Source: a virus (taxonomy: Duplodnaviria > Heunggongvirae > Uroviricota > Caudoviricetes). From it: a stretch of DNA of 64,000 nt. The first letter of the stretch is position 1. Every line of letters begins with the position of its first letter. The notes under the pieces were generated by a model. That model ran no database searches. It was not told the origin of the DNA and saw nothing but the letters and a program-made list of their open reading frames with translations. Location: IMG/VR virus record IMGVR_UViG_2526164662_000021, positions 32,574 to 96,573 of that record; one strand, given 5' to 3'. The translations under genes and the position numbers were made by a program. Shown one piece after another: positions 24,872-33,087 of the stretch.

Positions 24872-25009
24872 CGAAAGTCATCCTTTATGCTGTATTTTTG
24901 AATTTAATTAAAAATGCTGCATAAAATAATAATGTATGCGCAGATGCTTGTACATAGCATTCTCTGCATGTTTGATTCATTTTTCACGATTGAGAGTTGC
25001 AAGGCGGGC

Positions 25010-25034
25010 ACAAAAAAGCCCCGTTCAGGGGCAT
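25010..25034 (-). terminator. rho-independent terminator after the T5orf172-like gene
   Basis: GCCCC-GTTCA-GGGGC with T-run on minus strand. Confidence 0.55.
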
Positions 25035-25039
25035 CAGTG

Positions 25040-25849
25040 TTATTTGTTAAGAGCTGCGAATAATCGTTCGAAATCGATAGTATATATAGCACGCGTAAGC
25101 GCCGGAAGTTCAGCCTCAAAGTACCCGTGTCGATCGTAAAAGAAGGGACCAAAGAGCGAGGAATGTTGGATTCTACTTCGCCCCAGCCCGGACACACAGT
25201 TAAGTCCATTACCGGATAAAAGGCTAAAAAACTTCTCTGGATTATCGTGGTAAAGCTGGGAATCAATGGTGGCAGTTAACTCTTCCATAGGGAAGCACAC
25301 CCGCCCAGTCTCCCAGGAATATTTAGTCCGAAGCGTAAACATCGCTTTCAGCAATTCACATTGAGCGCGGATCGCGTCAGGTTCATAGCCAGATATGGAG
25401 ACATAAGCCACATCCCTCATTCCTGCGTCATCTTTGAAAGTCACGATAGAAGTAACATCCAGTTCTTTTTCGAAAGAGCGAGCAGCATCTACTGGACGCT
25501 GAAGTAAATCATTCGACTTAATCCGCTCAAGAATCCCTCCCCACATATCATTTAGGTATTCGATATGAGCCAAAACCTTATCAAGACACTCTCGTGTAAA
25601 CCATTCAGTATGCCCGCCACCGGCGCTTTTCTCCCACGGCGCATTCCAGGGGAAAAAGGTTGCGTGTAAAGCCCGCTCAAGATTAACCATTGCCAAACGC
25701 GTACCACGATAGACCCGTGAAAGCGCAAAATCGGGACTCACTTGTAGCCCTTTAAACCGTGCCAATGGACCACATGAAATGCCGATTTTAAAAGTATCTC
25801 CGTTCTCCGGCACCAGAACGTAGAGGTAGTGTTGTTTCTCTTCTTGCAT
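25040..25849 (-). CDS. GIY-YIG/T5orf172-like domain protein, 269 aa (insertion between incA and parA)
   Basis: N-terminal HYLYVLVPENGDTFKIGIS...GGHTEWF resembles the T5orf172/GIY-YIG-like fold; has its own terminator. Confidence 0.55.
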   Translation of the reverse strand: MQEEKQHYLYVLVPENGDTFKIGISCGPLARFKGLQVSPDFALSRVYRGTRLAMVNLERALHATFFPWNAPWEKSAGGGHTEWFTRECLDKVLAHIEYLNDMWGGILERIKSNDLLQRPVDAARSFEKELDVTSIVTFKDDAGMRDVAYVSISGYEPDAIRAQCELLKAMFTLRTKYSWETGRVCFPMEELTATIDSQLYHDNPEKFFSLLSGNGLNCVSGLGRSRIQHSSLFGPFFYDRHGYFEAELPALTRAIYTIDFERLFAALNK

Positions 25850-25874
25850 ATCAATACCACTGCTTGATGAGAAC

Positions 25875-26135
25875 CGCGCAAATGTTGACTATGCGCGAAA
25901 GTTAATGTGAATAGTTGACTATGCGCGATGTGACTACAGTCAAAAGTTGACTGTAGTCGATTTAACTCCACCAAAAATCGACTATGTAAGATATTGTCGG
26001 GAGAAACGTTGACTATACGCGATGAAATGACCCTAAAAGCCATCTCAATAGCGACTTGCAGAATATTGACGCCAGCAAAAATCCACCAGCGTCAACGAAT
26101 GTCGCCTATAGTCAACTTCTCGCTATCGCATATAG
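25875..26135. repeat. incA: incA-like iteron array (about 9 iterons, both orientations)
   Basis: Repeated GTTGACTATGCGCGA and reverse complements downstream of repA. Confidence 0.75.
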
Positions 26136-26141
26136 TCAATA

Positions 26142-27083
26142 TTATGGATTGCGCTTATGGATCTGGAAGCCGATTTTCCTGCCGTTTTTTATCTCTGAAA
26201 ATTTAAGATATTCAATAGCTTCCAAATCTTTCATAGCTTTTCTGATAACGCTATTTTGCACGCTAACGGATGATTTGAGATTAAGCCTTGCTCTAAGGCG
26301 CTCAATGCTGACAGGTGCCGGGTTGGCGGGTAGAGCCTCAAAGAATGTATACAGCACCTTGGCCGTCTCTTTGCGCCCGAGCTTATCCAGCATCTTCAGC
26401 TTCAGGATTCGCTTATAGTCAACATAGTAAAGTTCAGATAGCTGTTTCTGCGGCTGGATCTCGATAACATCAAGCTCGGTATTCAGGCTGCTATATGCCA
26501 ACAAGTTGACGTTAATGTTATTGAGATGACCTTTTGCCGCCGGGAAGCGGAATTTGACAACTGTCTGCTGAATGCGTGTCAGAGAGTCATCAATACTTTT
26601 ACGGAACGCCTTTGAAAGGCGCTTACGTGGATAGCCGCATCGATCGGCAAACTCGGAGAATGGCAGGGTGATTATGCCGTCATCATCAGGTGCGTAGTCA
26701 AACAACGCGGAGGTTATGCCCACCCACACCTTAAAATCAGTATCCATATCCAGGCGTGGACCATGTATTTCAATTCCCTCATAGCCTTCCTGCTCAACAA
26801 TTTTGAGGCTTGATAGTTCTTCGGTTGCGTTCGTTGTGTTTGTAGTAACTGACGATCCGCGACGTAGTGCCACATTGGTAGATTTTAAGGTTGGCACAAA
26901 CACACCTAAGCGCAACAAAGCGATTGGTTGTATAGTGCTATTGTTATTGGGTTTCAGGCTGTGGATTTCTCCTGTATTTCCTGCAACTTCTTCAACGCTA
27001 AGGAAGCCTTTATTTTCTTCCGGCATCGTGGTTTCTCCATATGTGGCGCGGCCTGGCGTCATCTGGATTGCAGTTATCAACAA
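26142..27083 (-). CDS. repA: plasmid replication initiator RepA (start may be the internal Met at 27020)
   Basis: ORF flanked by iteron arrays on both sides. Confidence 0.8.
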   Translation of the reverse strand: MLITAIQMTPGRATYGETTMPEENKGFLSVEEVAGNTGEIHSLKPNNNSTIQPIALLRLGVFVPTLKSTNVALRRGSSVTTNTTNATEELSSLKIVEQEGYEGIEIHGPRLDMDTDFKVWVGITSALFDYAPDDDGIITLPFSEFADRCGYPRKRLSKAFRKSIDDSLTRIQQTVVKFRFPAAKGHLNNINVNLLAYSSLNTELDVIEIQPQKQLSELYYVDYKRILKLKMLDKLGRKETAKVLYTFFEALPANPAPVSIERLRARLNLKSSVSVQNSVIRKAMKDLEAIEYLKFSEIKNGRKIGFQIHKRNP

Positions 27084-27099
27084 CTGTGAATAGTCAGGC

Positions 27100-27325
27100 T
27101 CTAAAATCGCGTACAGTCAATGTTTCTGTCGCGTATAGTCAACAATAAATCGCGTGCAGTCAACAATAAATCGTGCACAGTCAACATAAAATCGCGTATA
27201 GTCAATGTTGATCCCATTTCAGGCCAGAAATGGCGCGGCTTACAGCGATCCGGGATCTTCTTTGGATCTTCCTAGGTTCTCTTTAGGATCTGTTTATTGG
27301 ATCTATGCTGTGGATAAGTTGAATA
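27100..27325. repeat. plasmid origin: 5 direct iterons (incC-like) plus GATC-rich AT region and DnaA box
   Basis: Five direct repeats AATCGCGTAYAGTCAA at about 21-bp spacing (27104-27212); at least 5 GATC in 27213-27300; TGTGGATAA at 27310-27318. Confidence 0.75.
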
Positions 27326-27360
27326 AACCGGCCAATAAAGCCGGTTGGAAGGAAGCCGTA

Positions 27361-30826: not shown

Positions 30827-33087
30827 AAGAGCTGTGCTATGGATCTGTTTGCAGTGGAATTGAAGCCGCGAGTATTGCCTGGGAACCGTTGGGTATGCGT
30901 CCGGCGTGGTTTGCTGAAATCGAGCCTTTTCCATCTGCCGTTCTTGCGCACCGCTGGCCCCATGTCGCCAACCTTGGCGACATGACAAAACTTGCCAAAA
31001 AAGTCCTGGCTGGGGAAATCGAATCCCCTGATGTGCTCGTCGGGGGAACACCTTGTCAGGCATTCAGTATCGCTGGATTACGTGGTGGGCTTGATGATGA
31101 GCGTGGCGCGCTAACTTTAAAGTATGTGGAGCTTGCAAATGCAATTGACGACAAACGGGCTGAGTCATTTCTCAAACCGACAGTTATCGTCTGGGAAAAT
31201 GTCCCAGGAGTCCTGTCATCGGCAGATAACGCCTTCGGATGTTTCCTTGCCGGATTGGCTGGAGAAGATGCGCCATTTGAACCAGGTGATCGACCTGAAT
31301 CAGGAAAAAGTAACGCGTTCTGGCGGTGGGATGGCAAAACCGGTTGCCATGCTCCAAAGTGGCCGCAGTGTGGTTGTATTTATGGACCGCAGCGAAAGGT
31401 GGCCTGGAGAATCCTTGATGCCCAATACTTCGGAGTGGCACAACGACGCCGACGCGTGTTTGTTGTCGCAAGTGCTCGAACAGACCTCGATCCCGCAACG
31501 GTACTTTTTGAGTTCGAAGGCGTGCGCCGGAATATTGCGCCGAGCCGAAAAAAGAAGGAAATCGCTTCCGCCATTATTGCAAATGGCGCTGCAATCAGTG
31601 GCGAAAGCCTAAATCCATGCCTACACGCTGACATGCCACCCGGTATGAAATCGACGAAAGCCGTAAACGCTTTCAGGATGGCAGCATTTGGGGAATATAT
31701 TGACGATGAAACCGCATCGACAGTAAAGGCAAGAGATTTTAAAGATGCCACTGACCTTGCCGTTTTTAGCAGCACAGGAGCAGGTTTTTGGTCAGAAGGG
31801 CATGGTACATTGCGGGCACGTGAGCAAGAAAGCCATGAGCATCTTGTTACATTGGCTTTTCCTGAGCGTATGAGCGGTACACAACATGCTGCAACTAAGA
31901 ATACTTCACCATCTCTGATGGCTAAAAATCCAACAGCTGTTTGCTATGAAGTAAGAAACGCAGAAGTAGCTGTCCGCCGTCTTACCCCTGTCGAATGTGA
32001 AAGGCTGCAAGGTTTTCCTGATGGGCATACGTTGATCCCGACGGAAAAGCGTAAAAAAGTTAATTCAGATGAACTGGCATATCTTCGCAATCACTATCCA
32101 GATTTAAGCGAAGAAGAGGCCGCGATGCTTGCAGCTGACGGACCGCGTTACAAAGCGATCGGCAATAGTATGGCAATACCAGTAATGCGCTGGATTGGCG
32201 ATCGGATTACTAAGGCCGTATGTCGGCAGAAAGAAGGAAGTGAAACAAAAGAGCGAAAAGTTAAACCAGCGGCAGAATTCGAACGGTCCATATTCAAATG
32301 GGCTGGTGGAAAATTTGGTGTTCTGGAACAAATCTTTCGCTATTTGCCAGAAGGGAAGCGCCTGATCGAACCTTTTGTCGGTGGCGGAGCTGTCTTCACG
32401 AATGCCGGATACCAGGAAAATCTGCTAAATGATGTGAATGCTGACCTGATTAACTTTTACAAGACTCTGCAACGCGAGGCGCATTCACTTATCACACTGG
32501 CGCATCGGTTTTTCCAGGACTACAACACACAGGAAGGATACCTGGCAGTACGGAATGCGTTTAACAAACAAGTCTATGATGATTTACATCGCGCAGCGGC
32601 GTTTTTGTTCCTGAACCGACATTGTTTTAACGGATTGACGCGTTACAACCAGGCCGGTGAGTTCAATGTCGGTTATGGGAAGTATAAAACTCCGTATTTC
32701 CCATTACAGGAGATGGAAGCCTTCCTCGGTGCGGAAGGGCGTTCTGAGTTTGTATGTGGTGATTTTGCTGCGGTGATTGAAGCTGCCGGAGAAGGAGATG
32801 TCATCTTCTGTGATCCGCCGTATGAACCGCTTCCAAATACAGAGGGATTCACGAACTATTCCGGTCATGACTTTAAGTTTGAAGAGCAAAAACGCCTGGT
32901 GTCTCTGTTGACGGATGCTCATCGCCGAGGTGCAAAGGTTCTCATTACTAACAGTGGCGCGCCAAACATCAGAGAGCTTTATCATGACAATGGCTTCAGA
33001 GTGGAACCTCTTTTTGCCAGACGTTCTGTGTCTTGTAAGGGGGACACTCGAGGTGTTGCTCATGACGTCTTAGGCATATTGCTCTAA
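30823..33087 (+). CDS. dmt: bifunctional DNA methyltransferase (N-terminal C5-cytosine-like, C-terminal Dam-like N6-adenine), 754 aa
   Basis: N-half motifs [11 protein letters not shown] and ENVPG; C-half FVGGGAVF and CDPPY. Confidence 0.85.

Follow-up and report, generated by a model that had tools for sequence, protein, structure and literature searches.

A putative T5orf172-family nuclease gene ends the replicon cassette of a P1-like phage-plasmid and may belong to the homing-endonuclease type

Introduction

In phages, T5orf172 homing endonucleases are variably present, occur as frameshifted copies and lie near essential genes and at exchange boundaries (PMC10448857). Iteron origins are cut by T5orf172 nucleases that are fused to replication-initiator domains; such fusions have arisen repeatedly and exert selection for the swapping of replicon modules (PMC8263062, PMC10448857). 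Gp88 of vibriophage ICP1 was named Odn, for origin-directed nuclease (Barth et al. 2021, PMC8263062). Here we describe a gene with a T5orf172 domain in a P1-like phage-plasmid. It lies on the minus strand at 25040 to 25849 of a 64,000-nucleotide stretch of a Caudoviricetes record (IMG/VR IMGVR_UViG_2526164662_000021, positions 32,574 to 96,573). We call this stretch the window, and all coordinates refer to it unless a contig is named. The gene encodes a protein of 269 amino acids (aa) and sits between the incA-type iterons and Ppar, the promoter of the par operon.

P1-like phage-plasmids of Enterobacteriaceae commonly carry extended-spectrum beta-lactamase and mcr resistance genes, and typing of these elements relies on the replicon (IncY or p0111). 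The window is a p0111-type P1-like phage-plasmid. The reading that we favor, with confidence a little short of even, is that this gene, the last in an exchangeable P1-family replicon cassette, encodes a dispensable conflict nuclease of the homing-endonuclease type that acts on related elements.

Results

Replicon cassette

The gene order in the window is 23, parB, parA, nuclease open reading frame (ORF), iterons, repA, iterons/oriR, upfA, mlp, ppfA. The origin, repA, the control iterons and the par operon have the same order and orientation as in the P1 maintenance region (incC-repA-incA, parA-parB-parS; NC_005856). ParA and ParB are essentially identical between the two.

Two boundaries of an exchanged cassette were found by blastn of the window against P1. 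The par-side boundary falls between 24973 and 24974. Leftwards from 24973 the identity to P1 is 99.2%, and rightwards it is undetectable. This boundary is 66 bp past the nuclease stop codon and 19 bp upstream of the -35 element of Ppar. The origin-side boundary falls between 27222 and 27223. Identity to P1 resumes at 27223 (95.5 to 96%), inside oriR and just past the end of P1's incC iterons. The cassette between them (24974 to 27222) contains the incC iterons, repA, the incA iterons and the nuclease gene. Its 2,249 bp stand for 1,491 bp of P1. The nuclease gene is the last element of this replacement cassette and not a single gene added to the P1 replicon.

The first-pass annotation had placed the gene between the incA-type iterons and Ppar, and the iteron pattern search and the promoter mapped from P1 agree with this position. 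It had also described the gene as an insertion there. The gene is indeed absent from canonical P1, which has a 190-bp noncoding spacer between incA copy 1 and Ppar where the window has the 810-bp nuclease gene and its terminator. The rest of the description does not hold as worded, because the whole iteron-repA-iteron module belongs to another (p0111-type) replicon with a RepA 41 to 43% identical to that of P1.

Alleles in a conserved slot

Across a database of 5.8e9 protein clusters, the full-length family is represented by only four alleles. An exhaustive phmmer search of 1.84e9 representatives gave extra matches to the N-terminal domain only. The other alleles are P0004 on contig L003, P0010 on L004/L005 (labelled Salmonella enterica) and P0011 on L006 (faecal metagenome), and all three are known from single draft or metagenome contigs. 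PLSDB, the GTDB species representatives and IMG/VR were searched for further alleles and contained the window type only. The four proteins are homologous end to end (hhalign, 262 columns, probability 99.6). Protein identity is 43% between the window and L003, 40% between L004 and L006, and 27 to 31% across these pairs.

All four alleles lie between the incA iterons and Ppar in the same orientation as repA. The ATG is 34 bp past the last iteron in the window and 19 to 26 bp past it in the three other alleles. Three RepA specificities accompany them. The window and L003 share the window-type RepA and iterons (RepA 83 to 84% identical). L004 encodes a P1-type RepA that is 83% identical to P1 RepA. 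L006 encodes a third type, with a RepA 43 to 49% identical to the others and iterons of about GGCTACTGNATGCTAC. The partition proteins of L006 (contig positions 3800 to 8307) are strongly divergent as well (ParA 57% and ParB 43% identical to P1).

The locus shows a presence/absence polymorphism. The window, L003, L004/L005 and L006 contain the gene, and P1 and 144 IncY plasmids with the same flanks lack it. P1 and L004 both have a P1-type RepA, and the gene is present in L004 only. The slot looks ancestral because divergent two-domain alleles fill it in three other P1-like lineages, one of them with a P1-type RepA. The parsimonious interpretation is that a nuclease gene in this slot dates far back in the P1 family, that it is missing from the P1/IncY lineage of Escherichia coli, and that the window gene is not a recent private insertion. 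The polarity implied by the first-pass annotation was probably wrong on the same comparison of incA-parA junctions. A gene remnant was sought in the 190-bp spacer of P1 by tblastn and blastn with small word sizes, and only chance-level matches were obtained. Loss therefore cannot be told from replacement in P1.

A second pair of elements shows the same kind of exchange. L003 (6830 to 9020) and L004 (6655 to 8945) have a backbone of 94 to 98.6% nucleotide identity and different cassettes. The window-type RepA and the P0004 nuclease occur together in L003, and the P1-type RepA and the P0010 nuclease in L004. The pair represents a natural cassette swap, and its boundaries are of the same kind as those between the window and P1. 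In both of these independent lineage pairs, one end of the exchanged cassette lies 66 bp from the nuclease gene.

Tight co-evolution of the nuclease with RepA specificity was considered and rejected. The nucleases of the window and L003 are only 43% identical despite a RepA identity of 83%, and those of L004 and L006 are 40% identical with a RepA identity of only 43%. The L004 and L006 nucleases are 57% identical in the N domain, and the genes have 76% nucleotide identity over 231 bp.

Constraint and decay

The nuclease gene is under purifying selection and is less constrained than its neighbors. Between the window and RCS47, the ratio of nonsynonymous to synonymous substitution rates (dN/dS) was 0.12 for the nuclease, 0.02 for repA and 0 for parA and parB. 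Between the window and L003, dN was 0.52 for the nuclease, 0.13 for repA and 0.07 for parA. The nuclease diverged about 4 times faster than repA. The divergence is concentrated in the C domain, and the nearest alleles are 57 to 60% identical in the N domain and 28 to 32% identical in the C domain.

Intact copies made up 37 of the 45 that were sampled. The other eight were inactivated by a stop at codon 112 (n = 5), codon 68 (n = 1) or codon 228 (SJ46) or by an IS200/IS605 insertion (n = 1). More than 400 distinct truncated variants fall into two clusters, and many of them are on contigs of 40 to 185 kb. The gene appears dispensable for replication and partition because of this recurrent inactivation and the existence of a gene-less P1 lineage. 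In one disrupted copy (IMG/VR, L051, 3300 to 5000), an IS200/IS605-type element splits the gene past roughly aa 100 and contains two ORFs, one TnpB-like (389 aa) and one TnpA-like (141 aa); the element type was named by eye from the translations.

Protein domains

The coding sequence (25040 to 25849, minus strand; stop codon at 25040 to 25042) begins with ATG. It is supported by the ORF list, Pfam, PHROG, dN/dS and the RefSeq annotation. PHROG 2876 ("unknown function") spans the whole 269-aa protein (E = 8e-191). The first-pass annotation had assigned a T5orf172/GIY-YIG-like N terminus on the motifs HYLYVLVPENGDTFKIGIS and GGHTEWF. Both are in the translation, and a hidden Markov model search matched Pfam T5orf172 (PF10544) to aa 8 to 85 (E = 4.6e-6) with 27.5 bits against a gathering score of 20. 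The related MUG113 model scored 15.3, below its threshold of 22.3. In the predicted structure, too, the N domain has the alpha/beta fold that defines the T5orf172 family within the GIY-YIG class. The assignment and the absence of the gene from canonical P1 both stand.

The protein contains three parts. The N-terminal nuclease domain (aa 1 to 115; 25505 to 25849, minus strand) is of the T5orf172 class of the GIY-YIG superfamily. The linker (about aa 116 to 135; 25445 to 25504, minus strand) is predicted to be disordered, and it is basic in three of the four alleles. The C-terminal domain (about aa 136 to 269; 25043 to 25444, minus strand) is an acidic sequence orphan with a predicted alpha/beta, winged-helix-like fold.

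AlphaFold2 with a 66-sequence alignment gave a mean pLDDT (predicted local distance difference test) of 82.7 and a pTM (predicted template modeling score) of 0.60. From a single sequence the pLDDT was 35 and the model was of no use, so that the usable model needed the 66-sequence alignment. It contains two folded domains joined by a disordered stretch at aa 122 to 134 (pLDDT below 50). The N domain (aa 1 to 115) was predicted confidently, and the C domain had a pLDDT of 73 to 92 for aa 160 to 269.

Y10, K21, G23, R31, E58 and E82 are invariant in the 66 homologues, and H62, W83 and F84 are kept in 90% or more of them. The family motif residues that were checked are the first-strand Tyr, the K-I-G motif, the Arg of helix 1 and the Glu of TEWF, with catalytic roles assigned by homology. 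In Odn the predicted catalytic glutamate was mutated (E180A) to give an inactive control (PMC8263062). E82 would be the equivalent of E180. Judging from these residues, the protein is likely an active nuclease.

A Foldseek search of viral models with the N domain returned T5orf172 proteins and putative homing endonucleases, including ICP1 ORF88 (E = 1.5e-3). Three BFVD models of 270 to 281 aa (A0A1S5UZT8, A0A146JDE8 and A0A1C9LWB4) align to the query over 247 to 279 columns, nearly the full length of the query, with a probability of 0.96 to 0.98. Their large root mean square deviation suggests another domain orientation. Other phages may thus encode two-domain relatives of this kind. The nearest relatives of the N domain alone outside P1-like elements (L007, L008 and L009) are in accessory regions of mobile elements. 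Their neighbors are a cI-like repressor (prophage-like contig), Mrr_cat, WYL and Hypoth_Ymh (chromosome), and a relaxase and umuDC-like genes (plasmid-like contig).

The C-terminal part had been described as lacking a recognizable motif, and the searches agree. We found no motif in this stretch of about 150 aa and no relatives in Pfam or PDB (best E, 0.25). The full-length protein retrieved no relatives of the C domain from 1.84e9 representatives, and the full-length and C-domain profiles retrieved none from 5.8e9 clusters. Rep families were likewise absent from the Pfam, PDB and large-database sequence searches. At the level of fold, the predicted C domain shows a weak resemblance to Rep WH1. 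The aligned residues of these matches are not reported, and their placement on the C domain is inferred.

The C domain as a sequence mimic of RepA was rejected, since its profile, compared with five RepA proteins by hhalign, reached a probability of 0.2. All four alleles have an acidic C domain (isoelectric point [pI] 4.6 to 5.6, net charge -3 to -10), and the pI of RepA is 9.3 to 9.5. The window and L003 have the same iterons and C domains that are only 32% identical. Rep-like DNA binding by the C domain is tempered by the lack of RepA sequence similarity, by the acidic pI and by this low identity despite shared iterons.

Transcription signals

The first-pass annotation had given the gene its own terminator, which the terminator scan and the RNA fold centroid both recover. 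This intrinsic terminator (25010 to 25032, minus strand) consists of a stem-loop at 25032 to 25018 and a T-run to about 25010. Its sequence is GCCCC-TGAAC-GGGGC followed by TTTTTTGT, and it lies on the same strand, 8 bases 3' of the nuclease stop codon. The L006 allele has an equivalent terminator after the gene, and the L003 and L004 alleles have a weak one or none.

Ppar (24926 to 24954, minus strand) is common to the window and P1. It was identified from the P1 annotation through a 99% alignment and by a promoter scan, and it has the same position and sequence as the promoter annotated in P1. Its -35 element (TGTACA) is at 24949 to 24954 and its -10 element (TATTAT) is at 24926 to 24931, with 17 bp between them.

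A consensus scan of the interval from the repA stop to the nuclease ATG detected neither a terminator nor, on the coding strand, a sigma-70-like promoter. Inspection by eye of the stretch from the last iteron to the ATG showed no match to the "-22" box of the P1 late promoter LP23 (AAGTGACTT). In the plasmid state, transcription that reads through from repA probably accounts for expression of the gene. Read-through is assumed because the scan found no promoter belonging to the gene, which is weak negative evidence. The terminator probably keeps this transcription out of the ParA-regulated par promoter.

Iterons, repA and origin

The iteron pattern TTGACTRTRNDCGA had 12 matches in the 64-kb window against 0.72 expected by chance, and all of them were within 25885 to 27205. 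The p0111-type incA array (25885 to 26139) contains four copies on the plus strand (25885 to 26022) and two on the minus strand (26102 to 26139). The incC-type iterons in the origin (27107 to 27205, minus strand) comprise five copies at 21-bp spacing. The window consensus is TTGACTATNCGCGA, whereas P1 has 19-bp iterons with another consensus. A perfect copy of the window consensus (TTGACTATAAGCGA) lies within the repA coding sequence at 26409 to 26422 (minus strand), apart from the incA and incC arrays.

The p0111-type repA (26142 to 27026, minus strand) encodes 294 aa. The mechanical ORF (26142 to 27083, minus strand) starts at a TTG at 27083 and would encode 313 aa. Annotated orthologues use the ATG at 27026, and this ATG lines up with the starts of other RepA proteins. 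The window RepA is 99 to 100% identical to the RepA of 394 PLSDB plasmids.

A DnaA box (TTATCCACA, 27309 to 27317) and the oriR GATC cluster are common to the window and P1 at about 96% identity (27223 to 27330). The DnaA box and GATC sites are kept while the adjacent iterons are replaced, and the origin is therefore a hybrid of shared host-factor sites and swapped specificity sites.

Prevalence and existing annotation

RCS47, SJ46, phi456, JL22 and other sequenced P1-like phages contain the same gene in the same place at about 97 to 98% nucleotide identity. In PLSDB the gene is on 401 plasmids, with protein identity never below 90%; their hosts are Escherichia, Salmonella, Shigella and Klebsiella. 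A 184-aa truncated window-type copy (P0098) is on an Edwardsiella ictaluri plasmid, outside the genus range seen in PLSDB. The gene is present in 412 of 5,426 complete E. coli genomes (about 7.6%), and 414 of its 421 places there are on plasmids. The plasmid NZ_JBWDPX010000002.1 contains a 100% identical gene. The window-type RepA is present in 398 PLSDB records, against 401 for the nuclease, and linkage of the gene to this RepA type is therefore essentially complete. The gene-less P1-type junction, with the 190-bp spacer, is present in 144 PLSDB plasmids (IncY).

RefSeq records name the product "GIY-YIG nuclease family protein." According to a 2022 paper, repA' of JL22 goes along with an unknown gene, gp57. 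From the JL22 annotation, gp57 would be this ORF. The nuclease gene is already annotated and very common, yet it is unstudied, with one paper noting an unknown gene. Three points appear to be new: the slot kept across P1-family lineages and three RepA specificities, the orphan C domain with a possible Rep-WH1-like fold, and the decay pattern like that of homing endonucleases.

Discussion

Homing-type reading

We read the gene as a homing-type nuclease because its presence polymorphism, its decay and its edge-of-cassette position match the signatures of phage T5orf172 homing endonucleases. The first-pass annotation had noted that free-standing GIY-YIG-like genes often serve as homing-endonuclease-like or as defense or anti-defense cargo. 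These genomic signatures seem to fit the homing-endonuclease type better than known defense systems. The protein would be a two-domain T5orf172 nuclease in which a catalytic N-terminal domain is joined by a flexible linker to a C-terminal domain that confers specificity and evolves fast. In the plasmid state, transcription from the repA promoter would run on across incA into the gene, and the terminator behind the gene would insulate Ppar. The nuclease would cut a specific DNA target in related elements that have another cassette or none. The cut would lead to gene conversion of the cassette (homing) or to damage of rivals. Since the gene is dispensable, it would pass through a cycle of spread, decay and loss, with canonical P1 as the "lost" state.

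Several points weigh against this reading. Cleavage, the target site and gene conversion are inferred only. The C domain was modeled with only about five informative sequences. Such acidity would be unusual in the part of a homing endonuclease that binds DNA, and it suggests a domain that binds or senses protein. Despite deep divergence the gene has kept a single slot, and its linkage to RepA is almost 1:1 (398/401), a stability greater than that of homing endonucleases of the classical, sporadic kind. The boundaries of the cassette may be no more than the points where homology resumes between alleles that share no nucleotide similarity. Gene-less IncY elements are still common (144 plasmids), and no sweep is visible. 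IncY and p0111 elements have the P1 par system and phage immunity in common, so that rarity of both types in one cell would not separate the possible readings.

Alternative functions

A single-gene defense or exclusion effector of the prophage-plasmid is an unlikely alternative. In it, the C domain would sense an invader protein and free the nuclease, with abortive infection or exclusion as the outcome. A conserved catalytic domain with a fast-diverging, acidic orphan C domain is what would be expected of a protein sensor in an arms race. Expression next to repA in the lysogenic (plasmid) state is probable from the promoter scan, and frequent loss and inactivation are typical of accessory defense genes. 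N-domain relatives are also found in accessory regions of mobile elements, one of them beside Mrr-type and WYL genes. However, no PADLOC-DB v2 family matched at E <= 1. A search for a known NCBIfam family also gave no matches to the protein. The full-length family is kept to one slot of one phage-plasmid family, whereas defense genes usually move between islands, and the protein contains neither an NTPase domain nor another recognizable sensor domain.

An Odn-like function is doubtful to a similar degree. Here the C domain, as a look-alike of Rep WH1, would direct the nuclease to iterons, or to a rival or satellite RepA by WH1-WH1 pairing, and the origin would be destroyed. The link to Odn is weak and comes from the weak match of the predicted fold and the genomic context. 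A more specific version, which we consider slightly less probable again, is replicon warfare. The WH1-like C domain would recognize either the RepA protein or the iteron complex of a rival P1-family replicon type, the nuclease would cut that replicon, and repair from the attacker would replace the whole incC-repA-incA cassette. If this version were true, a homing-type nuclease would drive IncY-to-p0111 swaps and so change the incompatibility group.

The protein might instead be a domesticated replicon accessory that does not cleave: a CapR-like regulator, an insulator between repA and par, or a modulator of copy number that acts through RepA or incA. The gene has a fixed place right after incA, is co-oriented with repA and swaps along with RepA and the iterons. 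The Rep-WH1-like fold predicted for the C domain would suit such a role. There is also a precedent for a T5orf172 homing endonuclease turned repressor (PMC8096241). We regard this alternative as improbable. The invariant residues, including the presumed catalytic positions, are kept in all alleles, P1 and 144 IncY plasmids persist without the gene, and about 15 to 20% of copies are null, so that the gene is not needed for maintenance.

A decaying selfish remnant of no present function, which would fit the recurrent nonsense and IS-disrupted copies and the high ratio of nonsynonymous to synonymous polymorphic variants (34 to 28), is very improbable given a dN/dS of 0.12 among diverged intact copies, an intact window copy, 37 of 45 sampled copies intact, and four alleles that retain full length and the invariant motif residues at 27 to 43% identity.

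Significance

If the nuclease acts on related elements, as in the homing-type reading, it would help to explain why the whole cassette, and not repA alone, is exchanged as a block with fixed ends. It would also help to explain why several incompatibility types occur on one phage backbone and how such elements compete inside cells. The recently recognized involvement of T5orf172 nucleases in the conflicts of mobile elements would then extend to plasmid replicons, beyond lytic phages and their satellites. If the gene is an ordinary selfish homing endonuclease, the value is smaller and lies in better annotation and a marker of cassette history.

Comparison with known systems

SLX1/URI-type GIY-YIG nucleases are 11 to 17% identical to this protein and resemble it in fold class only. 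The protein does not contain a RING/PHD domain and does not have an SLX4 partner.

Odn and the Odn-like proteins of coliphages Inny, Muut and Mt1B1_P17 share the T5orf172 domain with it, and the structural match to ICP1 ORF88 was given above. They also share a second domain that is initiator-like (here by predicted fold) and a setting in which replicon modules swap. The domain order is reversed between Odn and the nuclease described here. The second domain of Odn is a RepA_N-type domain that clearly resembles the RepA of its target in sequence, whereas the domain here shows a weak WH1 fold resemblance (iteron-type Rep). By the Odn standard of sequence homology to the origin-binding domain of an initiator, the second domain had none in hhalign against the five RepA proteins (0.2). 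Odn belongs to a phage anti-satellite locus, and the nuclease gene here lies inside a replicon cassette.

Free-standing GIY-YIG/T5orf172 homing endonucleases of phages (T4 Seg, I-TevI-type; ICP1, Barth et al. 2023, PMC10448857) are a further close system. The gene here differs in three ways. Its C module is an acidic orphan and not a zinc-finger (CapR/DUF723/DUF4397), NUMOD or helix-turn-helix domain. It has stayed in a single slot while its alleles diverged deeply, and it is tied to the replicon type. Its host is a phage-plasmid replicon rather than a lytic phage gene cluster. What it shares with these endonucleases is the arrangement of catalytic domain, linker and C module, an intergenic site beside essential genes, presence and absence in close relatives, frequent frameshifted or nonsense copies, and a place at the edges of recombination tracts.

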